Positions 1-24,343 of a stretch of 29,129 nucleotides of DNA are shown one piece after another. How positions within the stretch are numbered: position 1 is the stretch's first letter; each line of letters opens with the position of its first letter. Made by a program: the position numbers and the translations under genes. Where the stretch lies: positions 1 to 29,129 of the forward strand of contig JAZDNV010000017.1 in the NCBI GenBank assembly GCA_043799385.1, given 5' to 3'. This DNA is from Candidatus Aenigmatarchaeota archaeon. GTDB lineage: Archaea > Aenigmatarchaeota > Aenigmatarchaeia > GW2011-AR5. The notes beneath the pieces were generated by a model. The model had not been told where the DNA came from, searched no databases, and was given only the letters and a program-made list of their open reading frames with translations.

Positions 1-675
1 TGAACATCTTTTCATTCTATCGAGCTTGCCGAAATATGTAAATACCGGCGATTCGCTAACTTTATATTTGGAGAAGTCATACGGTTTGGCATTTGGATTA
101 AACGCCTTTGTGTCAACACTCCTTCGCAGTGAAACAAACCTATCACGTTCCATACCCAACTCTGATAACATGCCTATTTTATCTCCACGTATCATGGCTT
201 TATCAGAAAATTTGAATACCTCGATGAATGCTGTACGCAGGAACGGAGAATCAAATAGCGTTGTTATGTCGCTGCCAGCATGCCTGACTATCATTGGTTT
301 TTTTGTCACGTGTTTTGCTATTAAAGCAGAGACGCCATACGGCAGTAGGTATTCTGAATATATCACATCAGGGTCGTGTTTTCTTATAACATCTATGGAT
401 AAGCTTGCTATTTTTGTAACATAAGAATTTAAATATGGTATAGGCGGTGATCTAGGGCGGTCGTTTTGCGTGCTGAACAGATGGACGTTTTTCGGCTCTA
501 ATTTTCCAGATTCCTCTTCTTGTATAACCTCTCTAAACGTTTCTTCCACTTCCCAGCAATTGCTCACAACGAAAACTTCATGCCCTACCTCGCCCAAGCC
601 TTTTGCCAGCCAGTATATACCAGACGATACACCGCCCTCGATAGGCGGATATTTAGAAATTATGCAGATTTTCAT
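1..675 (-). CDS. Glycosyltransferase family 4 (GT-B fold), N-terminal part; runs off the window's left edge
   Basis: Not in the ORF track. Read manually from ATG at 675: MKICIISKYPPIEGGVSSGIYWLAKGLGEVGHEVFVVSN...DPDVIYSEYLLPYG...KPMIVRHAGSDI, a typical GT4 N-terminal domain. The frame appears open to position 1. Confidence 0.85.
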   Translation of the reverse strand, partial: MKICIISKYPPIEGGVSSGIYWLAKGLGEVGHEVFVVSNCWEVEETFREVIQEEESGKLEPKNVHLFSTQNDRPRSPPIPYLNSYVTKIASLSIDVIRKHDPDVIYSEYLLPYGVSALIAKHVTKKPMIVRHAGSDITTLFDSPFLRTAFIEVFKFSDKAMIRGDKIGMLSELGMERDRFVSLRRSVDTKAFNPNAKPYDFSKYKVSESPVFTYFGKLDRMKRCS

Positions 676-748: not shown

Positions 749-1612
749 TTATGCTACTTCAGTGTTTTGCATAATTCTGGTGAGTTTTGCTTTGCATCCA
801 ATCTGATAGATGAAATTATACTCGTTTGAAAGCAGGCTTTCTGCAACAGCACTTTCTTCTGCCGTGATTTCAGCAAGGCAGAACCTCTTTGCCAGCATGT
901 AGTCAAAAACCTCGCATAGATCCTTCTGGTTCATATCCTGTATAGACGGCAGTATGTTGCACACTTTGCTGTTGAGCTCTTCCATTGGTATGCCGCTATT
1001 TGTGCTAAGGTCGCTTATGTTATTTGCGTGCATACAGTCCACGAAATAGTAAATCTGCATGTATGTTGATTCCCATTTTGTTTTTTCCACACCCATGATT
1101 TTGTTTGCCCATGATAATTCGCTCGTTCGGTCTAGCATCCCAAATCTGCACAATTTTGTAATAAAAGGTATATAGAATCCTTTCAAATCGTTCTCTGTTA
1201 GCGTGCTTGGTAAATTATTGTATGCAGACATGATTGCATCGGTTCTGTCTCTCATGATTTCAAAAGGCTCAAAACCTAGGTTTGCTTTCATCTGCATATA
1301 GACAAAAAGAAACGGTACCGCGCAATTTTTTTTAGAGTTGCAATCGTCAAATAACCGATCCAGATCGTTTGCTATCTGGTTTCTCTGTTCCTGCGTCAGG
1401 CTATTGAAATACCTTGGATTGTTGTATTCATTGAGGTTGCTCCATATTTCATTTATATTTAATGGTGTTGATGGCAGTTTTTGCAGATTATAGTAGTATA
1501 TCAAAGACAGTGCGACAATTATAAAAATTGCCAAAATCCAGCTGCTTTTTACTTTCTGTACTTTCGGCTGTACCTTTCGTCTCTTGTGAACGCTCCTGCT
1601 TTTTCTTTTCAT
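749..1612 (-). CDS. Membrane-anchored hypothetical protein with 8 conserved Cys (paralog A of 3422..4306)
   Basis: 287 aa with a basic N-terminus and one TM helix (WILAIFIIVALSLIYYY). Shares WAxKI, STYMQI, VCNILP and CKAxL motifs with 3422..4306. Confidence 0.75.
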   Translation of the reverse strand: MKRKSRSVHKRRKVQPKVQKVKSSWILAIFIIVALSLIYYYNLQKLPSTPLNINEIWSNLNEYNNPRYFNSLTQEQRNQIANDLDRLFDDCNSKKNCAVPFLFVYMQMKANLGFEPFEIMRDRTDAIMSAYNNLPSTLTENDLKGFYIPFITKLCRFGMLDRTSELSWANKIMGVEKTKWESTYMQIYYFVDCMHANNISDLSTNSGIPMEELNSKVCNILPSIQDMNQKDLCEVFDYMLAKRFCLAEITAEESAVAESLLSNEYNFIYQIGCKAKLTRIMQNTEVA

Positions 1613-1816: not shown

Positions 1817-2941
1817 ATGGATAGCAATGAAAAAAAAAGTCATCGAATAGAGACACTTTATCCACATCATTGTGTCTGGGAAATCACCCGTGCCTGCAAT
1901 ATGAGGTGTATACATTGCGGTTCAAGCGCAGGTCCGTTGACAAAAAGGCCGGACGAATTGAATACACAGGAAGCGTTGGATGTTATAAATCAGTTAAAGG
2001 AAATCGGAACAATAAAAGTCACCCTTTCCGGCGGAGAGCCTTTTCTAAGAGCAGACTGGGAAACTTTAGCAAAAGAAGTTGTCCGATTAAACATGTTCGT
2101 TTCGTTTATTAGCAATGGATTTTTGCTGAATGAGGATATAGCTGGGAGAATAAAAAGATTGAATGAAAACACTAATCTTGTACGTGTGGTATGCTTAAGT
2201 ATCGATGGTGATGAAAAAACCCACGATTATATAAGACAGACCAAGGGCTCTTTTGATAAGGTAACTCAAGCCATGGAAACGCTTAGAGATAGTGGTTTGA
2301 ATACTTCAGTGATAACACAGGTGAATAAGCTTAATCTTAAATTGCTGCCAAAGATAAGAGACAATATATTTAAATATAATAATATTGTTACTTGGCAGGT
2401 TCAAGTAGCTACTCCGTTCGGAAGGTTGGCTGAGGACCCAACGCTTTTGCTTAACCCTGGTGATTATCTCGAATTAGTAAATTTCATTGCAGAACAAAAA
2501 AGCATATTTGGAAGTAGAATCAGGATTGCTCATACCACAGGTTCATATACAGAGTCAGAGCCAATGTTAATTGGATGGGATGGTTGTTGGGCAGGATTAA
2601 AAGCTGTAGGAATTACCAGCAATGGCGGCGTGACCGGATGCCTGTCTTTGCAGGAGCCAAGGTTCATTGAAGGAAATGTGCGCACAAGAAGATTGGCGGA
2701 AATCTGGTATGATCCAAATTTTGCGTCATATAACCGTAATTTCAGAGAAGAGCTTCTGGAAGGTTATTGCAAGGAATGCGACCACCGCATAAAATGTCGT
2801 GGCGGTTGCAAAAATACAGCATATTCATTCTCCGGTTCACTTCATAATAATTTCTATTGTGCCCATAGAATCAGCCTTGGAGAAGTTCCCAAAGAAATAA
2901 AGTCAACCAGAACATCCGGGTGTGGTCAATACCATCCTTAG
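1817..2941 (+). CDS. Radical SAM/SPASM domain protein, putative peptide maturase
   Basis: CNMRCIHC (CxxxCxxC) in WEITRACNMRCIHCGSSAG, and SGGEP. Full SPASM Cys set: CWAG...GC-LSL...GNV...IW...CKEC...CRGGC...NNFYC. ATG 1817 (MDSNEKK) is preferred over the TTG at 1733 in the track. Confidence 0.9.
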   Translation: MDSNEKKSHRIETLYPHHCVWEITRACNMRCIHCGSSAGPLTKRPDELNTQEALDVINQLKEIGTIKVTLSGGEPFLRADWETLAKEVVRLNMFVSFISNGFLLNEDIAGRIKRLNENTNLVRVVCLSIDGDEKTHDYIRQTKGSFDKVTQAMETLRDSGLNTSVITQVNKLNLKLLPKIRDNIFKYNNIVTWQVQVATPFGRLAEDPTLLLNPGDYLELVNFIAEQKSIFGSRIRIAHTTGSYTESEPMLIGWDGCWAGLKAVGITSNGGVTGCLSLQEPRFIEGNVRTRRLAEIWYDPNFASYNRNFREELLEGYCKECDHRIKCRGGCKNTAYSFSGSLHNNFYCAHRISLGEVPKEIKSTRTSGCGQYHP

Positions 2942-3012
2942 GGTTATATAAAAAATTCTATTTTTTCTCTGATAAATGAGAAATAAAGATTGATTTATTC
3001 GGTGGAATTAAA

Positions 3013-3390
3013 CTAGGCATAGGCGCCACCCGTAGTGCATCCACCATATGCCACACATCCCGCTGTAGTACATCCCGTCGTGCACGCAGTCGTACATGCC
3101 GTCGTGCACGCAGTCGTACAACCGCACGAAGTCGTACAACCGCAACCACCACAACCCGCAGTCGTACAACTCGTCGTACAGCTAGCGCTGCCGTGTGAGC
3201 TTGTATGCTGTCCTGTTATTGTACTCGGTTCTGTAAATCCTACAGTGGTGCCTGATATATGAGTTGCTGCCGCTGCTCCTACACCGACCAGTAATGCGCC
3301 TAGCGACAGTGCAGCCTGCTTGGAGACCTTTCCCTCCTCACCCAGCAAGAATGCGCATATCGTGGCCTTGATCTTTGGAAGTATTGACAT
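3013..3390 (-). CDS. Putative RiPP precursor: His-Xaa-Ser repeat (HxsA-like) protein with a Cys/Thr-rich repeat tail
   Basis: 125 aa. Leader ...FLLGEEGKVSKQ followed by a hydrophobic stretch. Motifs HIS (44-46), HTS (62-64) and HGS (66-68), then 13 Cys and nine CTT triplets. Co-oriented downstream of hxsB, with its own TATA-like box. Confidence 0.8.
   Translation of the reverse strand: MSILPKIKATICAFLLGEEGKVSKQAALSLGALLVGVGAAAATHISGTTVGFTEPSTITGQHTSSHGSASCTTSCTTAGCGGCGCTTSCGCTTACTTACTTACTTGCTTAGCVAYGGCTTGGAYA
3061..3180. repeat. Imperfect 12-nt coding tandem repeat (CTTA/CTTS/CTTG units) inside the precursor
   Basis: gtcgtgcacgca-gtcgtacatgcc-gtcgtgcacgca-gtcgtaca at 3077-3120. Positions 3075-3096 and 3099-3120 are identical (24-nt period). 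More gtcgtaca copies occur up to 3180. Confidence 0.85.
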
Positions 3391-3411
3391 AATTATCTAT
3401 TGTTTCTTTAG

Positions 3412-3419
3412 TTAATAAA
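3412..3419 (-). promoter_or_regulatory. Putative archaeal TATA box for the precursor gene (leaderless-type spacing)
   Basis: Minus strand TTTATTAA lies 22-29 nt upstream of ATG 3390, within a 31-nt intergenic gap with no SD motif. Confidence 0.5.
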
Positions 3420-3421
3420 TA

Positions 3422-4306
3422 TTACAAAATACTTTTAAGCATAGCTTTGCACTCCTTCTGGTGGTTTGATTCGTAATCCTTAAGGAGTATGTTCTCTGCG
3501 GAAGCCCGCTCTTCTTCAGTGATATTGATTGAGCAGAACTGCTTTATTCGTAAGTAATTATGAATTTTACACGGGTCTTCTCGAATTATATTGTTGAAAG
3601 CTGGCAAGATATTGCATACCATATTGTTTAATTTATTCAGGCTCATGTTGAGCCTTTGGCTAAGATCTTTAGTTGTATCTGCTTTTATGCATTCGACCAT
3701 ATAGCTAATCTGCATATAAGTGGATATCCAATTTTTCTTGTCGATTAAAATGATTTTTTCTGCCCAATAAGTCTTATCCTGGTCACTAAACCAGTAAGTA
3801 GGGAATTTATCCGTTCCATTGAAAAAGTGTGTATTGCACATCTGTATTAATAGTGGCACAAGGTATCCATTCAAATCGTCCTCTCTTAATGTCGGATAAT
3901 CTTTTAATAAATTTAAGTATATTTCTACAATCTTGTGATTAAAAATTTCATTGTCTATAGAATTCATGTTTCCCCAGCCTATTGGTGCATTCTCAATTTC
4001 AACTATAACAAATCGTGTCCTTAGGTAAGTATATATAAAATGAACGTTGCAATTCTCGTTTAGTGCCCAATTCTTGCATCTTTCATATAGTAAATTATTG
4101 AAAGATTTGACGAGTTGAGCTCTTTGCGTATTCGATAGGTTTTCGAGATATAATTTATTGGCATATTGTGCAGAATTTTCCAGTATTTTGTTTGGGTCTA
4201 TAATTTCCTCATTCTTGGAAAATTGGTAATAATAGAGACCAATGCATAAAATAATAATTAAGAAAAAGACTGTTAACTCTACCTTTCTTTTCATGTCAGA
4301 CATCAT
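3422..4306 (-). CDS. Membrane-anchored hypothetical protein with 8 conserved Cys (paralog B of 749..1612)
   Basis: 294 aa with an N-terminal TM (LTVFFLIIILCIGLYYY). Colinear similarity to 749..1612 is visible by eye. Confidence 0.75.
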   Translation of the reverse strand: MMSDMKRKVELTVFFLIIILCIGLYYYQFSKNEEIIDPNKILENSAQYANKLYLENLSNTQRAQLVKSFNNLLYERCKNWALNENCNVHFIYTYLRTRFVIVEIENAPIGWGNMNSIDNEIFNHKIVEIYLNLLKDYPTLREDDLNGYLVPLLIQMCNTHFFNGTDKFPTYWFSDQDKTYWAEKIILIDKKNWISTYMQISYMVECIKADTTKDLSQRLNMSLNKLNNMVCNILPAFNNIIREDPCKIHNYLRIKQFCSINITEEERASAENILLKDYESNHQKECKAMLKSIL

Positions 4307-4371: not shown

Positions 4372-5820
4372 TCATCGTTCTGGTCTTACCCATTTTGTAA
4401 TTATCTCACGGTCCTTTGACAGCAGTCGCCTGAAAACCTCCTTGGTTTGTTCGCCTCTGATTTTGCAGACGAAATTCGGGAATCGTGGCACAAGCGTGCC
4501 CGTTTCTCCATAAGCTGACACAAGGCATGGCGAGCAGAATGCGTGCCAGACGCAGCTCTCGCAAGACGATGATAAACAGGACGACAGTGAGATGAACGAG
4601 GAGACGTTCTCTGAAGTGAATACTTCTTTATAGCTATTGCTCTTTACATTGCCTAGTCTGAACGTCTCGTTCGACCGCGCTTCGTCACACGTATAAATAT
4701 CACCGCGTTCGTTGTAGGCGCACTGGATCGTTCCGACGCCGCAAGGCGAGTTGAGGCAGGCGTTGAATGTAGATTTCTTACACAGAATCCTTGACAATAT
4801 GAAGGACGTCGTTTCATCCCAAAACTTGGTGACCATACTATTTAGGTCTATTACGTATTGCAGGTAATCTTTCCAGAATTTTATGAACTCTTCTGGCGTA
4901 TAGCCAATTTTATCCCAGGCGTTGATGGCCATACCAGCTATATTAAGTTCCCTCATCCTCGTATGGTCGAACCCGCGTTTTATGTATTCGTCGACGATCT
5001 CTTTTGCATATGGCAGCGAATGTTTTGTGATCGTGGGTATAGCACTGATTTGGATACCCCTTCTCTTTATTATCTCGATCCATTTTACAGCATCATCGTA
5101 GCTGCTGTTGCCGTTTCTGCACGGACGGTTCCTGTCATGCAGTTCCTTGGGCCCGTCGAGTGACGTGCATACCCTTATCTTATTTTCAGTAATATAATTC
5201 AGGATATCCTCATCCATCAGTGTCAGATTTGTCACAATCATGAAAGAAATATTTCTGTCTCCGGTATACCATCCACGCTCATCCGGTTTCGGTGATTTAT
5301 TCTTCTCTTTCGTATAATCTACGATATACTTAACGATTGGAAAATTCAGCAGCGGCTCGCCGCCCTGGAATTCGATATTCAGGAATTTCGATGGCGACTG
5401 GAAGATAAAGTCGACGACTGCCTTTGCAGTAGTTTCGTCCATGTCGTACTCCTTTGAATTAATATCCTTGGATAACGCATGGCAATAAATGCAGTTCTGG
5501 TTACATCTTAATGTGGGCACGATTATATGCAGATTTATGCCATTGAATAGGTAATTGAATCTCTGTTTGCACGTATCGACCATATCATTTGTATTCTTTT
5601 CTGTTATGATTATTCCCCTTTCTTCTAGAACATCGAAAAGATGCGGGTCTTCATTTATTTTATTTCTTATAAGAAGATCATACTCATTCTTTGAGAGAAC
5701 TATCCATGAACCATGGTCAGTCGTTACAAGAATATGCTCGTCGTCGAACTTATGCGTAAGAAACTTATTGGCCGTATATGGTACATTATTGATGATATTC
5801 TCATTCAGGTAGTAAACCAT
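4372..5820 (-). CDS. hxsB: His-Xaa-Ser system radical SAM maturase HxsB
   Basis: LHIIVPTLRCNQNCIYCHA, IEFQGGEPLLNF, TSLDGP..LHDRNR, SPCGVGTIQCAYNERGDIYTCDEAR and CESCVWHAFCSPC match HxsB-type motifs. Has an N-terminal RRE-like region and lies next to HxsD-like genes and an HxS peptide. Confidence 0.88.
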   Translation of the reverse strand: MVYYLNENIINNVPYTANKFLTHKFDDEHILVTTDHGSWIVLSKNEYDLLIRNKINEDPHLFDVLEERGIIITEKNTNDMVDTCKQRFNYLFNGINLHIIVPTLRCNQNCIYCHALSKDINSKEYDMDETTAKAVVDFIFQSPSKFLNIEFQGGEPLLNFPIVKYIVDYTKEKNKSPKPDERGWYTGDRNISFMIVTNLTLMDEDILNYITENKIRVCTSLDGPKELHDRNRPCRNGNSSYDDAVKWIEIIKRRGIQISAIPTITKHSLPYAKEIVDEYIKRGFDHTRMRELNIAGMAINAWDKIGYTPEEFIKFWKDYLQYVIDLNSMVTKFWDETTSFILSRILCKKSTFNACLNSPCGVGTIQCAYNERGDIYTCDEARSNETFRLGNVKSNSYKEVFTSENVSSFISLSSCLSSSCESCVWHAFCSPCLVSAYGETGTLVPRFPNFVCKIRGEQTKEVFRRLLSKDREIITKWVRPER

Positions 5821-5828
5821 TCGATCAC

Positions 5829-6110
5829 TTATCTAAAACCTTTTACTATCTCCGGGACTTTTCCATCGTTTTTTATTATGCCCAGAACATAATTGTAGAA
5901 TTCGTGACCAAGTATATACAAATCTATTTCCTCCGTTTTTGGTTTAAGTAACACTTGCATGATATCCTGCCCATCGACCGATGTAAAGCATACATCAGAA
6001 AAATCCTGTGAAGCTTTGAATACGCAATCGGATGGGTAAAACCTTGTATCGAAGATTACAGTAACACTCCCATCCTCTTTGTTTATGGTTATTTTGTCAT
6101 TCATTTGCAT
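5829..6110 (-). CDS. HxsD-like small protein (second copy)
   Basis: 93 aa. FDTRFYPSDCVFKASQDF...VLLKPK...LGHEFYNYVL parallels the neighbouring HxsD (VNPRLYPLEVIYSSAYIF...VQLRPK...LGREFNNELL). Confidence 0.7.
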   Translation of the reverse strand: MQMNDKITINKEDGSVTVIFDTRFYPSDCVFKASQDFSDVCFTSVDGQDIMQVLLKPKTEEIDLYILGHEFYNYVLGIIKNDGKVPEIVKGFR

Positions 6111-6541
6111 TCGTCCTTATTTTTCCACGGCTTTGCGATCTTTTCCGGATCTTCTGTATATGATGCTTCATTTCTGGGGTGGTGAATAAATCGATGCTCT
6201 TGCTTGCCGTCCTGCTCGTTCGTGAGCAGTGCTCTGCGCATTATAGTTTCGCGCAAGCCCTGATTTTTCACAGTCCTATGCAGGTAAACCATGTAATTGA
6301 GTAATTCGTTGTTGAATTCACGACCCAATTCTTCGATATCTGAATCGTTCTTTGGTCTTAGCTGAACCAGAATCTCCTCTTTAGGGTCGCCGTCTATCAT
6401 GACGAATGCACGGTCAATAAAAATATATGCAGAGGAATATATCACCTCCAACGGATATAATCTTGGATTCACGGAAACATTTACGAACTTATCTTTTCTA
6501 TGCAGTTCAAGATTGTCTATCATCTGAATATCTTCTTCCAT
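6101..6541 (-). CDS. hxsD: His-Xaa-Ser system protein HxsD
   Basis: NPRLYPLEVIYSSAYIFIDRAFV...EELGREFNNELLNY...LRETIMRRAL is an HxsD-like pattern. ATG 6541 follows an SD-like GGGGTG and avoids overlap with the divergent gene (the track starts at 6595). Confidence 0.8.
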   Translation of the reverse strand: MEEDIQMIDNLELHRKDKFVNVSVNPRLYPLEVIYSSAYIFIDRAFVMIDGDPKEEILVQLRPKNDSDIEELGREFNNELLNYMVYLHRTVKNQGLRETIMRRALLTNEQDGKQEHRFIHHPRNEASYTEDPEKIAKPWKNKDECK

Positions 6542-6585
6542 TAGAACACCCCATAGTATTAATATACTAGAGTTTAAATTATTTT

Positions 6586-7641
6586 GTGTTTGCAATACTT
6601 TTTGCTCTCGTTGTATTCGGTATATGGACTTCTTATACCGATATAAAGAAAGGCATGATTAGGAACAATGTCATTCTGCTCCTATTACTGGCAGCGTTTA
6701 TTCTGAACACATTCTATACGAGAAGTTTTGTTGTTGCTACTGCGGCATCGGCTGTAAACATAACGGTTGCCATAGTTGGAGGATTTTTGCTATGGTTTGC
6801 TGGTATGTGGTCAGCGGCAGACGCAAAATTGTTCATTGGCTTCGCCTTTCTTCTGCCTATAACCCTATATGAGCACAGTTTTTCATACTTTCCAGCTGTG
6901 GCGATTTTGATAAACAGCTTTGTGCCGATATTCTTGATACTTTTTATTAACTTGGTTTTAAAAACAAACTCAAAGGATATAAAGAAAGCCGTACGTGAAC
7001 AGTTAAATATAAAGAGTGTTCTTCGTTTGGCTCTGGCTGTTTTTGCAATATCATTTATACCCATGGTCATGCGCTATGTCTTTAATATACAGTTTGAATA
7101 CTTCACTTCGATACTCTTCCTTTTCATAATTTTTGAGGTTGTTGAAAAAACGATTAAGGTTAAAATGAATGTATTTTACATAATCATGTCAATCGCATAT
7201 GTCATATTTTTTAATAGTTATATATTTACATTGGATTTTATTTTCAATTTTATTAGATGGTTTCTAATGTTACTAGGAATATTCTTTTTGATTAATCTCA
7301 GCAGATTTTCATTCACTTCGTCGGTGAAGATAACCGAATTGAAAGAGGGTATGATACCTGCTGAAATCATTGTCAAAAGCAGCGAAAAATATGTTACAAG
7401 ACCAATGGCCTTTATTACCCCTTTCTCGATGCTTAGGCAGAGAAAGGAATCGATATTTGGATACAATCCTGACGGTCTGGTTGGCAAGGATATAAAAAAT
7501 ATTCAGTCATTGTATAGAGAGAAAAAGTTAGGTTTCGATGAGATTAGAGTATCCAATACAATGCCTTTTGCGCCGATATTATTCATAGGAGCGCTGATAA
7601 CCTATTTTTCTTCTGGAATCTTTCTTAATTTGTTCATATAA
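6586..7641 (+). CDS. A24 family prepilin/preflagellin peptidase (archaeal FlaK/EppA-like, multi-TM)
   Basis: First catalytic Asp in TSYTDIK. Second in AGMWSAADAKLF (a GxGD variant). C-terminal ITELKEGMI...MPFAPILFIG archaeal peptidase domain. Many TM segments. Confidence 0.85.
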   Translation: MFAILFALVVFGIWTSYTDIKKGMIRNNVILLLLLAAFILNTFYTRSFVVATAASAVNITVAIVGGFLLWFAGMWSAADAKLFIGFAFLLPITLYEHSFSYFPAVAILINSFVPIFLILFINLVLKTNSKDIKKAVREQLNIKSVLRLALAVFAISFIPMVMRYVFNIQFEYFTSILFLFIIFEVVEKTIKVKMNVFYIIMSIAYVIFFNSYIFTLDFIFNFIRWFLMLLGIFFLINLSRFSFTSSVKITELKEGMIPAEIIVKSSEKYVTRPMAFITPFSMLRQRKESIFGYNPDGLVGKDIKNIQSLYREKKLGFDEIRVSNTMPFAPILFIGALITYFSSGIFLNLFI

Positions 7642-7645
7642 AAAG

Positions 7646-7653
7646 TTTATATT
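7646..7653 (+). promoter_or_regulatory. Putative BRE/TATA box
   Basis: AAAAG-TTTATATT directly upstream of the 7676/7685 start. Confidence 0.45.
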
Positions 7654-7684
7654 CCGCGAATAACAATTACTTTTATTGATAGAT

Positions 7685-10012
7685 ATGCGTAACAATATTT
7701 TGATTGCATTAGCGTTTTTGCTCCTACTGCAATTTTCTTATGCTGCATGCCCAGAATCAACTTGTTTGGCTCTTGGCTATTCTACTGCACGGTGCAGCGG
7801 TGCGACGACTTGTAATTCTGGCGAAGTTGATGTAGCATCATGCACAACTGGGCCGTATGGCGAAAGATATCCATGTTGCTGTTCCAGTCCAATGAAAATC
7901 TGGATAAAAGACCCAAACGATTTTACAGTAGTGAATGGGGCATTGATGAGCAGTTGCACTTTAGCCAGTAGTACACAATCGTGCTTTTATTCATATTATA
8001 CATGCGATGTAAGGGGAACTTATACAGGTCAGACATGCAAGGATTATTCTTCTGGCTTGGATTATGTGGCTGGAACAACGTGCAGTGCTTGGACGAATCT
8101 CTGGTATTGCAATATTGAATGTAAAAAAGACAAGGACTGCCCTGAGGGTGAGTGCTGCCTTGTTGACAATACATGTGGCCTTTGCCCGCCACCGCCGCCG
8201 TGCGAGACGGACAACGACTGCTCGCCAGAAATAACAGGCGATTACTGCTGCGCGGACGGAAAGTGCAGGTCGTCATGCGCAGGTTATCCGAACGTTACTA
8301 TCACACCGGCAATACAATACGGCTTGGCAGGAGAAGCGTTGAGCTATACAGTAACGGTGAACAATTCAAATAATTCTGCTCCGGTTTCATTCACGCTGAC
8401 TTATGGATGCCCGCAGAACTGGACGTGCAGCTTCAGCAAAAACACGATTGTTGTAAATCAGAGCAACATAACAACAATGTCTGTGTTACCGCCCCTGGGC
8501 AAGGACGCTGGCAGTTATAGATTCAGTGCAACTGCGGCAAGGAGCTCAAACACGAGCATTTCAGGAATAGGCTATGCGACATACGTCCTGGAGTCGCAGT
8601 GCAATCTAGATTGCAATGCAAGAAACTACATCGCAGGCTCGTGCAGATCCGTATGCGAATCGCCGGACTGGATTGGAATAGGCGCATCCGATTGCCTGAG
8701 CAGCTGCTGCTGCATAAACGCAACAATGCCTGCGAACGCTAGCGAGTGGAGCGTAACGGTTTCACTGAACCTGACAGCAAAGAGACCGAATGAAGTAAAT
8801 TGGTCATACTTCGGGAATCTCGACTTTTCGACTGGCATGGCTACAGCTACAGGAAGACTTTTCGAATATTCAAACTACCTTTCACCATCCAAAACAAGCG
8901 GATACGTGAACCTTCTGCAGAATCCGTGTGAACCAGGTGATTTTGTGATACCAAGTGTTAATACACGGGTGATATGGACAAAGCCAACGTTCTCTAGGGA
9001 ATATGAATGCACAAAAGACCAATGTATGCTCAGGCTGAAGGTCGACAATACGTTGATAGAAAGCGCGTGGTCAACCAATCATTGGGTTGGAGTCATAAAC
9101 ACGAGCATATACCATTCGGACGTTACAGCGAACGTGACATTCCTGCCGACAGGCGCAACTGGCGAGGATTCTGAATCCTATGAAGTGGTTGATGAAAAAT
9201 ACATACTCATCGCAGTGAGTTATCCTTACGTCAAGAACCGCGTCGTGCCCCTGACAGAGACGGGAGAGCCCAATTTCACCAGAACGATGCCTATCGAATT
9301 CTCGGTCAAAGGCATTATAAGAGACAAGAACAGTCCGTTGTATTCAATGAATTGCGACGACAGCATATGCAACGCGTCTTATAATATAGACGGCGGTGGC
9401 TGGAAAAGATTGTCTTGGAACGCTCTGGAAAAAGCGTTCACAGATTCTGCATCGAGCAACGGTCTAACGTGCAACGTGTATCACAGCTTGAACGTAATGA
9501 TGGCTTCTGCCCAGGCGAGCGGCACAGGCAGAATCAGATTCTACATAAACTGCATACCGAAGATAACGGTCAATCCGAAAGAAGTGTCGATTGCGCTTGG
9601 CAGAAAGAACATACCTGTGTTCAACGTCACCATATGGAACCCTGTTGATACAAGCCATGTGTATGACTTGGAGATGAAGAACTCGGACCCGACCCAGGAC
9701 TACCTCACTCATTGGACAAGATTCGAGTACGATAATGATAAGATTGTCCAGCACCCGCTTGCTTTGACTGATCTTAACAGGGCAAAGGCATTCATGGGCT
9801 CAATGGATTCAGCATCGACTATCGTTCAACTGACAGAGGATGCATCATCAGTGGCAGGCGTCTACCCTATAAAGTTCACTGCCACGGGTTCGTACCTGGA
9901 AGGCGAGGGCACGTTAATGGTCTATGCAGAGGGATTAAATGAGTTCGCAGTGTGGCAGCTGTTCTTCTTGATGATGTTTGCAACCTTGGTCATGGTTATA
10001 ATAAAGAAATAA
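7685..10012 (+). CDS. Large secreted Cys-rich cell-surface protein with Ig-like beta domains and a C-terminal membrane anchor
   Basis: Signal peptide MRNNILIALAFLLLLQFSYA. Repeated Cys modules, a PPPPP linker, an Ig/NEW3-like segment (GEALSYTVTVNN...PQNWTCSF) and many NxS/T sequons. Ends in LNEF + TM helix + KK. Confidence 0.8.
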   Translation: MRNNILIALAFLLLLQFSYAACPESTCLALGYSTARCSGATTCNSGEVDVASCTTGPYGERYPCCCSSPMKIWIKDPNDFTVVNGALMSSCTLASSTQSCFYSYYTCDVRGTYTGQTCKDYSSGLDYVAGTTCSAWTNLWYCNIECKKDKDCPEGECCLVDNTCGLCPPPPPCETDNDCSPEITGDYCCADGKCRSSCAGYPNVTITPAIQYGLAGEALSYTVTVNNSNNSAPVSFTLTYGCPQNWTCSFSKNTIVVNQSNITTMSVLPPLGKDAGSYRFSATAARSSNTSISGIGYATYVLESQCNLDCNARNYIAGSCRSVCESPDWIGIGASDCLSSCCCINATMPANASEWSVTVSLNLTAKRPNEVNWSYFGNLDFSTGMATATGRLFEYSNYLSPSKTSGYVNLLQNPCEPGDFVIPSVNTRVIWTKPTFSREYECTKDQCMLRLKVDNTLIESAWSTNHWVGVINTSIYHSDVTANVTFLPTGATGEDSESYEVVDEKYILIAVSYPYVKNRVVPLTETGEPNFTRTMPIEFSVKGIIRDKNSPLYSMNCDDSICNASYNIDGGGWKRLSWNALEKAFTDSASSNGLTCNVYHSLNVMMASAQASGTGRIRFYINCIPKITVNPKEVSIALGRKNIPVFNVTIWNPVDTSHVYDLEMKNSDPTQDYLTHWTRFEYDNDKIVQHPLALTDLNRAKAFMGSMDSASTIVQLTEDASSVAGVYPIKFTATGSYLEGEGTLMVYAEGLNEFAVWQLFFLMMFATLVMVIIKK

Positions 10013-10052
10013 ATCGCCCACTGCTTCAGATTATCATCTTGCTAAAAACTAA

Positions 10053-10091
10053 TTTATATATAGGAGAACAATTATATTTAACGTGAGGTGA
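10053..10091 (+). promoter_or_regulatory. TATA box and Shine-Dalgarno upstream of eS26
   Basis: TTTATATA at 10053-10060 and GAGGTGA at 10085-10091, 6 nt before ATG 10098. Confidence 0.6.
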
Positions 10092-10097
10092 AATACT

Positions 10098-10367
10098 ATG
10101 CCTGCTCCATACAAACGAGGTTATCATCATACCAAGTCAAAGGGACACGAATCTACTGTTACATGCGGATTCTGCGGAAGGAGCGTTCCGAGATGGAAGA
10201 CAATCGCTTCATATCGCGGTTTTCGAATAAACGATCCGGTTCTAAACAAGCAAATGGACAGGAGGATGATGAGCATGTTCCAGAGAAAGCTCTACGCATG
10301 CCCGTCCTGTGCCAGACATCGTGGTATAATAAAGGTAGGAAGAAGCAGAAGGTTGGGGTCTGACTGA
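10098..10367 (+). CDS. rps26e: 30S ribosomal protein S26e (eS26)
   Basis: 89 aa, basic. KGHESTVTCGFCGRSVPRWK...DP...KLYACPSCARHRGIIKV matches the eS26 zinc-finger pattern CxxCGRxVPxxK / CxSCAxHxxI. Strong SD. Confidence 0.85.
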   Translation: MPAPYKRGYHHTKSKGHESTVTCGFCGRSVPRWKTIASYRGFRINDPVLNKQMDRRMMSMFQRKLYACPSCARHRGIIKVGRSRRLGSD

Positions 10368-12265
10368 TGGAAAAGACGCGCGCAAGGCAGATGCTCGAGA
10401 TACTGCGAGCCCAAGGAATTGATTCAGTATCAAGGACTGAAGTCAAGTTAGACATCAAAACGCCTGCTGCGCCAGTTTTTTTGCCAATCGCAGAAAAATT
10501 GCCTGCCGCTGAGGTAAAAGAACCGCTGATTGCGGATAGCGTAAAAAAAGAGGAGCCGGCGAAAAAAGAAGAAAAAACGCAAATAAAGCTGAAGGGATTC
10601 CTGTACAGAAAGTTGATAGGCGGCAGGAAGGATATTGGAAAAAATAACGCATCGCAGAAGACGGAATCAAAACAGCGTTTCCACATACGCGGTTTGCTGT
10701 ACGATAAATTACATGAACAGAAGTCGGAACAGAGCAAATATCCCAGGTTTGCTATAGAACCAAGCGGAATAATTCCAGTGCTCTCGAAGGACGAGCTAAA
10801 GGAAAAGACCACGAGCTATCCGCTGATAAAGCCTTATGCCTATGCGGACATAAGGTTTGACCAGAGCGAGAACTCGCTCGTTTATTTCGTCGTTGAGCCC
10901 GAGCTGAACGATTTTGAGAAGCATGTTATATCTAAACTAAAAGAGGGCTTGCTGCAGGTTATCGACATCTCTCTGAAGGACATAAAGAAGGAGGATAAGA
11001 TGATCGACTTCCTTGAGGGGAACATAAACAAACTTCTGGATGAATATGACTTCAGCCTGAATGAAAAGGAATACCTGAAGATAATGTATTTCATATATCG
11101 TGATTTCGTCGGATTGAATGATATCGAGCCGCTGCTTTGTGACCCGTATATAGAGGACATAGGGTGCGACGGTTTCAACGTTCCCTTATATGTTGTCCAT
11201 CAGCGGTACGGCTCATTGAAGACTAATATAATATATCCTGATGAAAACGAGCTGAAAGAATTCGTTACGAAGTTAGCAGAACGCTGCGACCGCTTCATAA
11301 GCTATGCAGAACCGATGCTGGACGGAGCATTACCGGATGGCACTCGTGTCCATGCCTCATTAGCTGGCGACGTGACAACACGAGGCCCTACGTTCTCGAT
11401 AAGAAAATTCAGGGATGAGCCTTTCACGCCTGCCGATATAATTCGTTTGAATACTGCGTCGCCCGAGTTACTCGCCTACATATGGTTCGTTGTCGAGAAC
11501 GGCGTCAACATACTGATAGTGGGCGGCGTTGCAACAGGCAAGACGTCGCTGCTGAACTGCATCTCAATGTTCATACCGTCTGAAGCGAAAATCGTATCAA
11601 TAGAGGATACGCGCGAATTATCATTACCGCATGAGAACTGGATACCAGGCGTTGCGCGCACCGGCTTTACCGGTACTGGCGTCGGCGAAGTAACGATGTT
11701 CGACCTGCTGAAGGAGTCGTTCAGGCAGAACCCTGACTATCTGGTCGTGGGCGAGATACGAGGCAAAGAAGCATACGTAATGTTCCAGTCCATGGCGTCA
11801 GGCCACCCGTCAATATCAACAATGCACTCCGGTAGTGTCGATGACGTCGTCAGCAGATTACGAACAGAGCCGATATCCCTGCCACCTGGATTAATACAGC
11901 TTTTGGATTTAGTCATCATTATGGTCCATGCGCGTGAGAAAGGAAAATCCGCCAGGCGTGTTAAAGAAATTGTTGAAATACAGAGCATTGATTCTGAAAC
12001 AGGTTTTGCAAGGACGAATAAGGTCTTTACCTGGACACCATCCCAGGACACGTTTGAATATCATGGCGATTCGTGGGTACTGCACAAGATATCAACTGAA
12101 AAGGGAATAACAATGAACGATATTGTTCGCGATATAGCCAAGCGAAAGAAGTTCATAAACTGGATGGTGGAGAAAAATATCACGAACATGAACGAAATCG
12201 CGAAATACATTGAAACATACAGGAGAAGCCCTGAAAAAATAAATTCTTTGATCGGATATGAATAG
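10367..12265 (+). CDS. Archaeal type II/IV secretion (type IV pilus) assembly ATPase, FlaI/TadA/VirB11 family
   Basis: YPLIKPYAYA...YFVVEPEL, GLNDIEPLLCDPYIEDI, FSIRKF, Walker A GGVATGKT, SIEDTREL, RQNPDYLVVGEIRG and GHPSISTMH. Confidence 0.93.
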   Translation: MEKTRARQMLEILRAQGIDSVSRTEVKLDIKTPAAPVFLPIAEKLPAAEVKEPLIADSVKKEEPAKKEEKTQIKLKGFLYRKLIGGRKDIGKNNASQKTESKQRFHIRGLLYDKLHEQKSEQSKYPRFAIEPSGIIPVLSKDELKEKTTSYPLIKPYAYADIRFDQSENSLVYFVVEPELNDFEKHVISKLKEGLLQVIDISLKDIKKEDKMIDFLEGNINKLLDEYDFSLNEKEYLKIMYFIYRDFVGLNDIEPLLCDPYIEDIGCDGFNVPLYVVHQRYGSLKTNIIYPDENELKEFVTKLAERCDRFISYAEPMLDGALPDGTRVHASLAGDVTTRGPTFSIRKFRDEPFTPADIIRLNTASPELLAYIWFVVENGVNILIVGGVATGKTSLLNCISMFIPSEAKIVSIEDTRELSLPHENWIPGVARTGFTGTGVGEVTMFDLLKESFRQNPDYLVVGEIRGKEAYVMFQSMASGHPSISTMHSGSVDDVVSRLRTEPISLPPGLIQLLDLVIIMVHAREKGKSARRVKEIVEIQSIDSETGFARTNKVFTWTPSQDTFEYHGDSWVLHKISTEKGITMNDIVRDIAKRKKFINWMVEKNITNMNEIAKYIETYRRSPEKINSLIGYE

Positions 12266-12938
12266 AATCAAAACAGGAATAACAGGTTTTGACAAGCTCG
12301 TGGAGGGTGGAATACCGGAAAAGGATTTGATTCTGCTCAGCGGTCGGTGCGGTGCAGGCAAAACGGTTTTTGGTCTTCAGTTTTTATTCTCATCACCAGA
12401 AAAAGAGCCAGGATTATTCATCAGCTTCGAAGAGGACCTTCAGCAGATAAAAAACACAGCAATGCAGCTCGGCTGGAATGCAGACGCTTACGAGAAGGCA
12501 GGAAAGATACGATTACTGCGCTACGATCCATTCAAATTAGAGGACATATTCGAAATAATTGAGAACAACATCCGCGAGATAAATGCGAAGCGCGTTGTCG
12601 TTGATTCAGTTTCATCGTTAGGCACATACGTCAAGGATAATTCAGAGCTGAGAAGGATGATAATGCAGATAAGCAACATGCTCAGAAAGAACGGATGCAC
12701 ATCCATTCTCACATGCGAGGTGCTTAATGATAATTCGCTCTCTCGGTTTGGCGTCGAGGAGTTCGTTGCGGATGGAGTGATACTCTTGCACAACGTTCTG
12801 ACTGCCGGCGAATACCGCCGCGGTTTGAGCGTCTGGAAGATGAGGGTAACCAACCACTCACGAAAAATCCACCCGTACAAAATCACTGAAAAAGGGTTTG
12901 TCGTCTATCCGAATGATACTATTTCTCTAAAAGGCTGA
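12258..12938 (+). CDS. KaiC-like single-domain RecA-superfamily ATPase
   Basis: RIKTGITGFDKLVEGGIP, Walker A GRCGAGKT, SFEE, RVVVDS, EEFVADGVI and KMRVTNH. Confidence 0.9.
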   Translation: MNRIKTGITGFDKLVEGGIPEKDLILLSGRCGAGKTVFGLQFLFSSPEKEPGLFISFEEDLQQIKNTAMQLGWNADAYEKAGKIRLLRYDPFKLEDIFEIIENNIREINAKRVVVDSVSSLGTYVKDNSELRRMIMQISNMLRKNGCTSILTCEVLNDNSLSRFGVEEFVADGVILLHNVLTAGEYRRGLSVWKMRVTNHSRKIHPYKITEKGFVVYPNDTISLKG

Positions 12939-12985: not shown

Positions 12986-13855
12986 ATGTACAGGAAGACG
13001 CTGAAGTATTTTGGAAAGCTGGGATTAAAATACCTGACGGGTTATGTTGCGCCACTCAAAGAAGAGATAACGAAATCGAATCTTAACATACTCTTTGAAT
13101 TCTACGTTGGAAAGATGCTATTCCTATCGTTTGTCGCATTCGTTGCGGTTTTCCTCGGAACTACAATAGTTTCTGTCTTGATACTGAATCTTGATATACT
13201 TCTGTCATTGATAGGAGCGCTCATCTTATCGGTTGCCGTGTCGTTTGCAGTGCTCACGATATATCATTCCTATCCGTTCCACACGCTTTCAACGAGAAGG
13301 AATGATATAGAGGGCGTGATGCCTTTTGCCATAAACCACATGTCAGCTATTGCCGCTAGTGGCGTTCCGCCGTACGTTGTATTCAAACTGCTTACCGGCA
13401 TAAAGGAATATGGCGAATTCATGCACGAGTCGCAGCGTATTGTCCGAAACATAGACGCGTTCGGCATGGATTTGATATCTGCGATAAAAAACGTGGCTGA
13501 AAGAACGCCATCCGAGCAGTTTCGCCAGTTTTTATATGGAATCGTATCGAATATAGAAACAGGCGGCGACTTGAAGAAGTTTTTTGACAATGCGGCAAAA
13601 GAAGCATTATTTGATTATCGCTTGAGAAGGGAAAAATATCTGCAAGCATTATCGACTTATGCAGACTTCTATACAGCTGTGCTCATCGCCGCGCCGTTAT
13701 TCTTCATCGCTGTTCTTGCAGTGATGGGAATGATTGGCGGTACGGTCATGGGGTTACCAATCGACCTGGCGATGACGATGGGCATCTACGGCTTGATGCC
13801 TATTCTAAACATGGCGTTCATAGCGTTCATACACTACACGCAGCCGAATATATAA
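12986..13855 (+). CDS. Type II secretion system F / TadC-like pilus platform membrane protein
   Basis: MPFAINHMSAIAASGVPP...YGEF...FGMDLISAIKNVAERTPSEQF...TGGDL. TM pattern typical of archaeal TadC. Confidence 0.9.
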   Translation: MYRKTLKYFGKLGLKYLTGYVAPLKEEITKSNLNILFEFYVGKMLFLSFVAFVAVFLGTTIVSVLILNLDILLSLIGALILSVAVSFAVLTIYHSYPFHTLSTRRNDIEGVMPFAINHMSAIAASGVPPYVVFKLLTGIKEYGEFMHESQRIVRNIDAFGMDLISAIKNVAERTPSEQFRQFLYGIVSNIETGGDLKKFFDNAAKEALFDYRLRREKYLQALSTYADFYTAVLIAAPLFFIAVLAVMGMIGGTVMGLPIDLAMTMGIYGLMPILNMAFIAFIHYTQPNI

Positions 13856-15153: not shown

Positions 15154-16746
15154 ATGATGAAAAATATAGCAGCGTTTGTAATCGCATTTTTCCTAATTAT
15201 CGGAATCAGCAACGCCGCGAACATGTACTGCGGCGCCGGTTCATCAACCGACTGCCCGACAGCAGGAACAGAGTGCAGCGGCGCGAACAAAGCCTGCTTC
15301 TACCCGAACTGCACGTGCCTGGTATCCTCGCAGACTATAGATGGAAATACTAACTACACTTTCGCTAATTTCACATTATTATCAGGTCAGACACTTACAG
15401 TATCTGCAGCAGGCGGCGCAGGAGGAGACGCGCCGGTATATAATGGCGCATGTGGTGGCGGTTCCAATGGTGCTGGTTGGGCAGCAGGCGGTTCTGGCGG
15501 CACTGGTGGTTATAGCAGTAGTGGCGGCGGCTCCTACGGCGGCGGTGGTGGTGGTGGCGGTCAATCTTACAATGGTGTCACTGGCTGCGCAGGCGGCTCC
15601 TACAGCGGTGGCGGCGGTGGCGGACGTGGCGATAGTCAGTATGGCGACTCTGGCGGAAACGGCGGTACTGGCGGCGGAACGATTAATATTTCTGCCAATT
15701 ATATTCGAATTGCAGGAACAATAACTGCAAACGGCAACAATGGCGCTTCTCTTGCTGCTGCTTATTATTCTGGCGCAGGCGGCGGTGGCGGGGCAATCTT
15801 TTTGTATGGCAATACTGTAAATCTGTCAGGCGGCACTATAAACGCAAACGGCGGTAATGGTGGTAGTTGCTCTGGTGGTTCTTACGATGCCAGCGGCGGC
15901 GGCGGAGGCGGCGGCTACATCCAAATAGTATATGCATGCACATACACTGCAGGAACTTATTCTGTTGCTAATGGCGTACCTGGAACAGCAGGCACTTGTA
16001 ATGGTGGCGATGGCGCTGCTGGTGGAGCTGGCTCATCTAGTCCATCGCAATCCGTCGGAGGTCAGATGCGATATGGGCCGAACATAAACGTGACATTCTG
16101 GAACCAGACGAACATTCCTATAAACGGCGGAACGGTTAATATTTATTACGCAGGTACTTCGAGTTGCTGGTGTTGCGAAGGCCGCACAGACAGCAATGGC
16201 TTCTTCAGCGTGAGCACTTTAGGCAACCCGTCGTGGACGAGCATCTACGACGTGAAATTGAACACGTCGCATTACAAGCAGGACATCTGGTATCGTGGCG
16301 TGCGTTCTCCTAATACTATAAATGTGTCATCGAACAGGAAGTGGATACCTGAGACGACGCAGTCAGACAGCCGATTATTCACTGCTGGCCAGATATTCCA
16401 GACAGAGCTGCACCTGTTCAATCCTTACGCGTCCTACGTTGTATCGAATCTGAGCATAGACGATTCCATAAATGAAAGCCACAGGATAATAAGCAACATA
16501 TTCCTTGAGCGATTTAACAGTACTGGTCGTGCCACGTGCGAAATCGCGCCTGATACTGCGCAGAATTATTACATAGACAAGACAGAATGCTCGTTCCTCA
16601 GCTACCTGAACGTCACGAATCGCGAATGGATACGAATTAGTTATAGAGTACGGATACCAGGACCGGAGAATTACACGGTCGGCGAGATAAAGACTTATAA
16701 TATACCGACTGCGCTGCTAAGGTTTGATGTCGAGTTATTTGGGTAA
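15154..16746 (+). CDS. Secreted glycine-rich surface protein
   Basis: Signal peptide and a Cys-rich N-cap, then a Gly-rich repeat domain (GGGGGG...I.ANG.NG...GGGGGG.I) of about 240 aa and beta-rich C-terminal domains. SD-like GGTGA immediately upstream. Confidence 0.8.
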   Translation: MMKNIAAFVIAFFLIIGISNAANMYCGAGSSTDCPTAGTECSGANKACFYPNCTCLVSSQTIDGNTNYTFANFTLLSGQTLTVSAAGGAGGDAPVYNGACGGGSNGAGWAAGGSGGTGGYSSSGGGSYGGGGGGGGQSYNGVTGCAGGSYSGGGGGGRGDSQYGDSGGNGGTGGGTINISANYIRIAGTITANGNNGASLAAAYYSGAGGGGGAIFLYGNTVNLSGGTINANGGNGGSCSGGSYDASGGGGGGGYIQIVYACTYTAGTYSVANGVPGTAGTCNGGDGAAGGAGSSSPSQSVGGQMRYGPNINVTFWNQTNIPINGGTVNIYYAGTSSCWCCEGRTDSNGFFSVSTLGNPSWTSIYDVKLNTSHYKQDIWYRGVRSPNTINVSSNRKWIPETTQSDSRLFTAGQIFQTELHLFNPYASYVVSNLSIDDSINESHRIISNIFLERFNSTGRATCEIAPDTAQNYYIDKTECSFLSYLNVTNREWIRISYRVRIPGPENYTVGEIKTYNIPTALLRFDVELFG

Positions 16747-19623: not shown

Positions 19624-19688
19624 CTGTCTAAACGAACTAGAAAACTTTATATTATAGCGGGAATCTAATAATTAATAGGGTGTGCAAA

Positions 19689-21059: not shown

Positions 21060-21060
21060 A

Positions 21061-22128: not shown

Positions 22129-22132
22129 AATC

Positions 22133-23311: not shown

Positions 23312-23324
23312 ATTTTTGATGATT

Positions 23325-24308: not shown

Positions 24309-24343
24309 CTAAATTTTAAATCCTTGGGATTCATATCTAAACT

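Follow-up and report, generated by a model that had tools for sequence, protein, structure and literature searches.

A probable HxsA3-class precursor with a cysteine/threonine-rich tail at an archaeal Hxs radical-SAM locus

What is the product of a small archaeal gene that sets histidine-x-serine (HxS) motifs and a cysteine-rich repeat behind one leader, and what might act on its two parts? The question is raised by the open reading frame (ORF) at 3013..3390 on the minus strand of a 29,129-nucleotide stretch of a Candidatus Aenigmatarchaeota archaeon (contig JAZDNV010000017.1, assembly GCA_043799385.1), hereafter called the window. Hxs was an orphan radical S-adenosylmethionine (SAM) cassette until 2026, when work on its bacterial form revealed a block to phage DNA entry. 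As described in the accessible part of that study (PMC13128918, Nat Commun 2026), the bacterial HXS system comprises HxsA, HxsB, HxsC and HxsD, with the order D-B-C-A in 99.6%; HxsB, HxsC and HxsD must be present for HxsA to be processed at its N-terminus, a +8 Da modification is located on SHRSS of HxsA in E. coli, and the processed HxsA is exported and held by its peptidoglycan-binding domain, where it prevents the phage DNA from entering. The words 'archaea' and 'thioether' do not occur in the accessible text. Other relevant literature on Hxs that full-text searches retrieved comprises a preprint of the same study and a passing mention in PMC9062424; curated NCBIfam models already exist for HxsA3, HxsA4, HxsC4 and HxsD_rel.

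We conclude that 3013..3390 very probably encodes an archaeal HxsA3-class precursor of an Hxs radical-SAM system. The ORF is divided below with the help of three alignments, namely the leader alignment A2, alignment A5 (the window ORF and its seven closest relatives) and alignment A7 (149 sequences).

3013..3390, minus strand: precursor gene, putatively an Hxs precursor of the HxsA3 class, 125 amino acids plus stop (ORF, weak leader match to NF038309, relatives)
3316..3390, minus strand: conserved leader n-region MSILPKIKATICAFLLGEEGKVSKQ, residues 1-25 (conservation in A2 and A7)
3265..3315, minus strand: hydrophobic Ala/Gly/Leu segment resembling a signal-peptide h-region, with an AAAA end, residues 26-42 (sequence reading)
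3187..3264, minus strand: HxS module THISGTTVGFTEPSTITGQHTSSHGS, residues 43-68, containing all three HxS motifs (A5)
3016..3180, minus strand: Cys/Thr/Gly/Ala tail, residues 71-125, with a GGAYA end (residue counts, shuffles, codon units)
3061..3144, no strand assigned: tandem DNA repeats within the tail, periods 24, 12 and 18 (repeat search)

Judged by homology, the ORF is a real gene, because its N-terminus is homologous to a large protein family; a mirror ORF of 75 codons on the plus strand (3035..3262) is without homology support. Scanned against NCBIfam at E<=0.01, the precursor matches HxsA3 (NF038309) as the sole family and no SCIFF or other Cys-peptide model, with residues 4-47 aligning to profile positions 2-45 of 81 (E 1.4e-4, 21.6 bits). 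Genes for a probable HxsD, an HxsD-like protein and HxsB lie upstream on the same strand, HxsB being one gene away. Together with the weak leader match, this gene order upholds the assignment to an Hxs-type precursor made in a preliminary description of the window. As in HxsA3 and HxsA4 (NF038309 and NF038313), a leader and a hydrophobic segment precede the HxS motifs, and HxsB and probable HxsD and HxsD_rel proteins are encoded nearby; in contrast to the HxsA3 model, the window protein has only three HxS motifs, and 55 of its 125 residues form a tail that lies outside the model. No match to the precursor was found among plasmid records, nor to Rfam over 2700..3700.

The three motifs, HIS at H44, HTS at H62 and HGS at H66, are not arranged in tandem. 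Script counts bear out the composition given in the preliminary description, whose span 3013..3261 corresponds to the stop codon and residues 44-125: behind the three HxS motifs, 13 of the 14 Cys of the precursor fall inside the 55-residue tail, which has nine CTT triplets and not a single D, E, K, R or H. The tail is composed of T18 C13 G11 A8 S2 Y2 V1, its Cys-to-Cys spacing reads 4,5,3,2,4,2,4,4,4,4,5,6, and nine or more CTT occurred in 0 of 100,000 shuffles. Neither the tail alone nor the tail with the HxS module retrieved any NCBIfam family even at E<=10.

The leader places the precursor in a large family. A word-indexed search with the precursor yielded five relatives of 95-100 amino acids; common to them are the leader M-x-ILPKIK-x-TIS-x-FLLGEEGKISKQ, a hydrophobic segment, a run of (GC)n and HSSS...HYSHSSV at the C-terminus. 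A cluster look-up for ten relatives returned a single source name, 'hypothetical protein'. The leader had been put forward earlier as a search query, and used as such (profile from A2) it retrieved 285 proteins at E<=0.001 from 1.84 billion representatives; the per-sequence figures given here refer to the 150 of these that were listed, 148 of which constitute A7 together with the window ORF. HxsA3 is matched by 141 and HxsA4 by 25 of these 149 scanned sequences at E<=0.001. FLLGEEGK is invariant in A2, and in A7 P5, K8, F14, E18 and K24 are conserved to at least 90% and G20 is invariant. The family consensus is a basic/acidic n-region of about 25 residues followed by a hydrophobic segment of about 18-20, small residues, the first His and the core. 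In 132 relatives the first His is followed by [TS][NS], with Ala at position -2 in 48 of them, and a signal-peptidase-type (AxA-like) site may lie behind the h-region. The cargo of the leader varies between HxS repeats, Cys runs and Hint domains, and the enzymes beside LLGEEGK-type leaders vary as well (HxsB/HxsC, B12-radical SAM, GT4). Nif11 and NHLP are shared-leader peptide families, and like them the window family combines one conserved leader with very different cores. One or two Hint domains, which are intein-like and self-cleaving, follow the HxS module or Cys run in P0021, P0042, P0108, P0123, P0152 and at 194-994 of the related locus L001 described below; the N-terminal peptide may accordingly be released or attached by autoproteolysis. 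An aromatic residue stands within the last three positions in 97 of 148 short family representatives, as in the GGAYA end of the window precursor, and Y or W is the last residue in 71 of 148, often as H-x-S-Y/W; this C-terminal aromatic may be a conserved recognition or capping feature.

The preliminary description had taken the window precursor for a chimera with two cores on one leader. The presence of an HxS part and a Cys-rich part behind a single leader stands, whereas its singularity does not, as the combination occurs in 23 of the 150 listed proteins and in all eight sequences of A5. In A5, H44 is invariant and most of the eight follow the pattern H-x-S ... [FY] ... P-x-[TI]-E-x-G-x-H-x-S-x-x-x-S. 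The Cys run, present in 8/8, is located C-terminal to the HxS module in the window precursor, P0011, P0038 and P0057, and between the hydrophobic segment and the module in P0001, P0002, P0003 and P0006. Since the run is found on either side of the module, the two are separable modules rather than an accidental fusion. Rule-based sorting of the 150 gave 63 proteins that are HxS-rich only, 23 with both features (5 or more Cys together with 2 or more HxS), 19 plus one long protein that are Cys-rich only, 38 with neither and 6 unparsed; HxS followed by Cys, the order of the window, is found in 12 of the 23. At least 5 Cys are present in 5/5 representatives of the leader subtype of the window, compared with 40/143 others, and a T/G/C-rich tail downstream of the module is also seen in P0052 and P0086. 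From these alignments, an HxS module and a Cys run on one leader appear highly likely to be a recurrent design and a trait of the clade. What sets the window precursor apart is the strict (CTTx)n period alone: three or more C[TS][TS] units occur in 0 of the 150 listed relatives, as opposed to nine here.

The origin of this period can be read in part from the DNA. The tail contains tandem repeats of period 24 (2.5 copies, 91%), 12 (3.7 copies, 78%) and 18 (2.2 copies, 95%). The 24-nucleotide unit TGT ACG ACT GCG TGC ACG ACG GCA/GGA is present in two copies in the central block, and the nine CTT units are encoded by five distinct 9-nucleotide codon versions. Because repeats of 91-95% match coexist with five codon versions, the periodicity is, on this reading of the codons, partly a recent DNA duplication (24 and 18 nucleotides) and partly a set of older, diverged copies. 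The repeats also invite the explanation that the tail is no real feature, only what a GC-rich DNA repeat yields when an open frame happens to run through it. The tandem repeats at 3061..3144, the long mirror ORF on the opposite strand and a GC content of the tail DNA of 58% compared with 42% for the window can be quoted in its favour; the GC excess, however, is accounted for by codons for Cys, Thr, Gly and Ala. The leader and HxS module that precede the tail in the same frame are shared by hundreds of proteins, relatives bear comparable Cys-rich tails of different sequence, and a simple repeat is at odds with five codon versions for nine CTT units. We therefore regard this explanation as largely refuted and scarcely credible.

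The genes around the precursor bear on what may become of it.

4372..5820, minus strand: HxsB, a radical SAM/SPASM maturase whose radical SAM core is preceded by an N-terminal extension (TIGR03978, 403.2 bits, cut-off 370)
5829..6110, minus strand: HxsD-like small protein (NF038315 HxsD_rel, 37.4 bits, cut-off 41)
6101..6595, minus strand: probable HxsD; the database version starts at the second Met and has 146 amino acids (TIGR03976, 42.7 bits, cut-off 50)
3422..4306, minus strand: membrane-anchored protein of 294 amino acids between HxsB and the precursor (no Pfam or NCBIfam match)
1817..2941, plus strand: rSAM2, a second radical SAM/SPASM enzyme, convergent with the precursor (Radical_SAM and SPASM domains)
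749..1612, minus strand: paralogue of the 294-residue protein with 287 amino acids, divergent from rSAM2 (31% identity over 283 residues, E 2e-41)
6586..7641, plus strand: A24-family (prepilin-peptidase-like) membrane protein with an Arc_PepC domain (PF06819, 31.1 bits, cut-off 23.4; PF01478, 24.5 bits, cut-off 26.5)
1..675, minus strand: family 4 glycosyltransferase (GT4), truncated at the window edge and downstream of the 287-residue paralogue (Pfam Glyco_transf_4)

HxsB carries the Pfam domains Radical_SAM and SPASM and is 32.5% identical to an annotated bacterial hxsB product. Its closest solved structures are 5wgg (E 4.4e-27) and then the anaerobic sulfatase-maturating enzyme 4k37, and its best non-Hxs families are PapB (148 bits, cut-off 340), the SCIFF maturase (138, cut-off 425) and CcpM (118, cut-off 500). 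PapB, the SCIFF maturase, CcpM and radical SAM/SPASM enzymes of the 5wgg type form thioethers. As for HxsD, 63 of its homologues carry PF27806 and several are named HxsD at source. Its predicted structure (predicted local distance difference test (pLDDT) 85.2) has 0 PDB matches at E<=0.001, and the HxsD profile finds none among PDB sequences; weak similarities of the model include chain K of an RNA polymerase (E 0.011, template-modelling (TM) score 0.40-0.54) and secretion chaperones. A role for HxsD as a PqqD-type recognition element, which we considered, found no support in these PDB structure and profile searches.

HxsC and HxsC4 are absent from the 25 best NCBIfam matches of each of the four radical SAM genes of the window, and tblastn of the window with Aeromonas HxsC and with the HxsC-like protein of locus L002 (see below) gave generic core matches only (<=31%, about 140 residues). 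By these searches, the window is without HxsC. The position of bacterial HxsC is occupied by the 294-residue protein, for which the ESM Atlas offered a poor model and no usable match. This protein and its 287-residue paralogue have about eight aligned Cys in the non-membrane part, and each of the two maturases, HxsB and rSAM2, adjoins one of the pair. The window shares with bacterial HXS an HxsB orthologue, a probable HxsD and a putatively exported HxS-bearing substrate whose HTSS resembles the modified SHRSS; it differs in lacking HxsC, in having two HxsD-type genes and in the 294-residue protein in the hxsC position. PADLOC 2.0, which contains no Hxs model, reported merely weak generic viperin-domain matches on both maturases. 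A lanthipeptide or thiazole/oxazole route for the Cys/Thr core was rejected, there being no dehydratase, cyclase or YcaO-type protein among the window ORFs scanned.

A scan for the leader in 185,579 species genomes gave four further loci, L001-L004. L002, from a metagenome-assembled genome (MAG) of the Methanosarcinales, is syntenic and comprises an A24-like gene, HxsD, an HxsD-like gene, HxsB (434 bits), an HxsC-like gene (97 bits against HxsC and 113 against HxsC4, both under cut-off) and a His- and Cys-rich precursor of 215 amino acids with 11 Cys. At L002 8907-10007, a Cys-rich membrane protein that differs from the 294/287-residue paralogues adjoins the precursor gene. L004, from a bacterium of the Poribacteria, has within the stretch 5294-10288 an A24-like gene immediately upstream of a Cys-rich precursor of 102 residues (8 Cys), whose leader is the bacterial variant HFLLGEEGKVGSQ with P0074, P0111, P0128 and P0144 as relatives. 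Further upstream are a GT4 enzyme (5294..6958) and a 538-residue protein (6968..8584) that weakly matches maturase N-terminal regions (SCIFF maturase residues 3-78, E 3e-4) and no glycosyltransferase; among the L004 ORFs scanned there is no radical SAM gene. In L001 (Woesearchaeota) a Hint domain is joined to the leader and an HxS-like module, and three genes of the B12-radical SAM type lie alongside; the contig ends 190 nucleotides upstream. L003, a Nanobdellota MAG, holds at 9989-10339 an HxsA4-like gene with HSSHGS repeats, interrupted by a masked run of N and located among RNA polymerase and ribosomal genes; tblastn with the HxsB, HxsD, HxsD-like and A24 proteins of the window found nothing within 10 kb.

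The stop codons of rSAM2 and the precursor gene are 72 nucleotides apart. rSAM2 has a complete SPASM motif, and its best NCBIfam matches are nif11-class maturase 3 (238 bits, cut-off 725) and the GDL-motif peptide maturase (211, cut-off 592), ahead of StsB (106, cut-off 625), SkfB (77, cut-off 300) and PapB (64, cut-off 340); its best PDB matches are SkfB and PqqE. Annotated plasmid-borne relatives of 33-35% identity are again nif11-class maturase 3 and GDL-motif maturases, one of them directly downstream of three small peptide genes. The best annotated relative, from Agathobacter (39.4% identity), has a major facilitator superfamily (MFS) transporter downstream and no Cys-rich small ORF upstream. 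Homologues number 476 at E<=1e-20 and reach 75% identity (P0156, 75%; P0157, 66%). As the nearest annotated and solved relatives are peptide maturases, rSAM2 is plausibly one as well; it probably, on balance, belongs to this Hxs system and may fill the slot of the absent HxsC.

On the basis of these comparisons, we propose the following course of events, modelled in its first step on the bacterial HXS system. HxsB, HxsD and the HxsD-like protein would recognize the leader in the cytoplasm and modify the HxSS site. The Cys/Thr tail would serve as a second radical SAM/SPASM substrate that is cross-linked iteratively from Cys sulfur to a neighbouring Thr or to a backbone carbon. The peptide would then be exported by means of its signal-like segment and lose its N-terminus, either through a cut at the AxA-like site or through the A24-type peptidase encoded nearby. 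For this explanation as a whole (an Hxs precursor with a modular Cys run, radical-SAM maturation and export) we see an even chance, and for enzymatic cross-linking of the tail by a radical SAM enzyme a chance slightly short of even. HxsB is at least as good a candidate for the cross-linker as rSAM2. In the ranthipeptide/SCIFF systems (CteB/CteA, PapB/freyrasin), as in the window, the core is Cys-rich and periodic and Thr is a possible acceptor, and PapB and the SCIFF maturase lead the non-Hxs matches of HxsB, with 5wgg as its best PDB match; unlike them, the window has a period of four with CTT units, and its maturase scores fall far below the family cut-offs. The CXXX-repeat system (maturase TIGR04115) resembles the window in having Cys at every fourth residue over much of the tail, but HxsB reaches 85.5 bits where the cut-off is 350, and TIGR04115 is not among the 25 best matches of rSAM2.

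A number of observations speak against this proposal. The HxsA3 score of the precursor is far short of the cut-off of 65 bits, and hhalign of the archaeal clade alignment against one bacterial HxsA showed no profile similarity (probability 0.1). An Aeromonas plasmid carries hxsD-B-C-A with an HxsA of eight HxS and 0 Cys; because of this, Cys is not part of canonical Hxs chemistry. Thioether formation, mass shift and cleavage are predictions for the archaeal members. The leader occurs without an Hxs enzyme nearby in L001, L003 and L004 and hence does not serve HxsB recognition exclusively. The family figures include at least one spurious match, the 2131-residue repeat protein P0059, and Cys-rich matches may be over-represented among them, as three sequences contributed (GC)n columns to the A2 profile. 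Among the close relatives in A5 the Cys runs differ widely, from (GC)n through irregular to CTTx, and this variability is as compatible with a low-complexity segment under loose constraint as with a substrate. Finally, rSAM2, whose CxxxCxxC starts at residue 27, is without a recognition domain at its N-terminus; it runs convergently to the precursor gene, hence is not co-transcribed with it, and has no homologue in L001-L004. Omnitrophica, Elusimicrobiota, Cyanobacteriota and Zixiibacteriota are the sources of its named homologues, and bacteria make up most of the nearest Atlas clusters.

These last points bear most directly on a stricter version, advanced in the preliminary description, in which the labour is divided: HxsB would modify the HxS module, and rSAM2 would introduce cross-links, such as Cys-to-Thr thioethers, into the (CTTx)n tail. 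In support, rSAM2 is a full SPASM enzyme close to the precursor stop whose nearest annotated relatives are peptide maturases, no small precursor ORF other than 3013..3390 adjoins it, the CTTx period and rSAM2 are both unique to this locus (the former among the 150 listed relatives, the latter in comparison with L001-L004), and HxsC is missing from the window. The association, however, consists of a single locus, and the orientation, lack of a recognition domain and broad distribution of rSAM2 count against it. The prediction that a Cys tail occurs only where a homologue of 1817..2941 is adjacent failed, as the Cys-rich cores of L002 and L004 have no such homologue beside them, and the CTTx tail as substrate of the adjacent SPASM enzyme is unproven, though not refuted. 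If rSAM2 merely replaced HxsC, it would act on the HxS module instead. We consider the division of labour unlikely, and specific modification of the tail by rSAM2 equally doubtful.

Alternatively, the tail might be no enzyme substrate at all, but a covalent or metal-bridged anchor or a metal-binding segment that takes the place of the peptidoglycan-binding domain of HxsA. The window precursor departs from bacterial HxsA in its leader, in the lack of a peptidoglycan-binding domain and in its Cys content (14, against 0 in the Aeromonas HxsA); its Cys/Thr tail lies in the same C-terminal position as the bacterial peptidoglycan-binding region (as described in the accessible text of PMC13128918). 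The free variation of Cys runs in sequence and position among close relatives, the expansion of the tail by DNA duplication and the dominance of C-x-C in the relatives, as in (GC)n, are in keeping with such a role. Possible partners would be the Cys-bearing 294- and 287-residue proteins, as well as the Cys-rich membrane protein of L002, and further Cys-rich secreted proteins are encoded in the window at 7676..10012 and 15154..16746. The tail itself is 24% Cys and contains only two C-x-C spacings, though its relatives are C-x-C-rich. On the other hand, it matches no metallothionein or other profile in Pfam or NCBIfam. Peptides that undergo iterative modification typically show Cys repeats of strict period (freyrasin/PapB, the CXXX-repeat family), and the strict periodicity of the tail speaks against an anchor, as does the location of the gene between two SPASM maturases whose closest relatives cross-link peptides. 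The anchor idea is a positional analogy only; we judge it, together with metal binding, somewhat unlikely.

With 18 Thr among 55 residues, the tail could also be a stalk that enzymes of the GT4 type glycosylate, with O-linkage to Thr or S-linkage to Cys. GT4 recurs near family members, namely at 1..675 of the window, in a fusion at 4820..7897 of L002 and at 5294..6958 of L004. The L002 protein, five genes from the precursor, has 1025 residues and joins an HxsC4-like radical SAM domain to a GT4 domain and a long C-terminal region, which hints that glycosylation is part of some archaeal Hxs pathways. But GT4 genes are common, and that of the window is two genes away, beyond rSAM2, truncated at the window edge, not detectably related to that of L002 and weakly related to the L004 stretch (E 0.046). 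Glycosylation of the tail is quite improbable.

To return to the cross-linked and exported precursor that we favour, its A24-type candidate peptidase has counterparts at two of the related loci.

L002 13613-14680, minus strand: A24-like protein (31% identity, E 2e-39 to that of the window)
L004 8577-9698, plus strand: A24-like protein (24% identity, E 2e-22 to that of the window)

D19 and D79 are invariant in the three proteins, and an A24-like gene is nearby in three of the four loci with both flanks visible. The protein may be a dedicated leader peptidase. In the window, its gene is divergent from HxsD and also neighbours a pilus-type ATPase operon, which leaves its link to the Hxs locus ambiguous. 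Class III (prepilin-type) signal peptides are cut by A24 peptidases, and the A24-like protein, in which the two Asp are conserved, would suit such a pathway; in contrast to these signal peptides, no canonical [KR][GAS] site directly precedes the hydrophobic segment, whose AxA-like end is of the sort usual for ordinary signal peptidase. An AlphaFold model from the three-sequence alignment reached a mean pLDDT of only 48, too low for a fold search, and the protein had no match among PDB sequences.

The archaeal form differs from the bacterial one in its Cys-rich module and lack of a peptidoglycan domain, in the absence of HxsC with an unrelated SPASM maturase adjoining, and in a leader that belongs to a large family of diverse cargo. 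A bolder and rather improbable extension is that the LLGEEGK leader is a mainly archaeal platform for peptide display, with an A24 leader peptidase and interchangeable cargo modules that each have their own enzyme; here rSAM2 would build a Cys-Thr thioether ladder in the (CTTx)n tail, and this ladder would be to an antiviral archaeal Hxs effector what the peptidoglycan anchor is to the bacterial one. An antiviral role of the window locus is suggested by analogy with bacterial HXS only. If the Cys/Thr repeat is cross-linked, it would constitute a new repeat-type radical-SAM peptide; if the tail is an anchor or metal site, it would indicate how an Hxs effector is held at the archaeal surface. 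The locus is compact and amenable to co-expression. Searches of full-text literature, with most subscription journals outside their scope, returned no mention of 'LLGEEGK', and no description of such a leader-based platform, of the Cys-run subfamily, of an HxsC-less locus with another SPASM enzyme or of the A24-peptidase link.

Some further features of the window were noted. An A/T-rich element, TTTATTAA, lies about 27 nucleotides 5' of the precursor ATG, within 3391-3421 (minus strand), where the gap between the stop of the preceding gene and the precursor is only 31 nucleotides; the element could be an archaeal TATA box that gives rise to a separate leaderless transcript of the precursor. 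The Cys-rich secreted protein at 7676..10012 has 778 amino acids, and that at 15154..16746 is Cys- and Gly-rich. The two flank a pilus/archaellum-type set consisting of a FlaI-like ATPase (10367-12265), a KaiC/FlaH-like protein (12258-12938) and a FlaJ-like protein split over 12986-13855 and 13868-14701, with a ribosomal S26e gene (10098-10367) in between; these genes mark the organism as an archaeon. The stretch 19680-26146 contains the radical SAM genes 21061-22128 and 23325-24308, a sugar aminotransferase, an F390-synthetase/PaaK-like ligase and an asparagine synthase, and this cluster probably serves glycan or lipid modification unrelated to the precursor.

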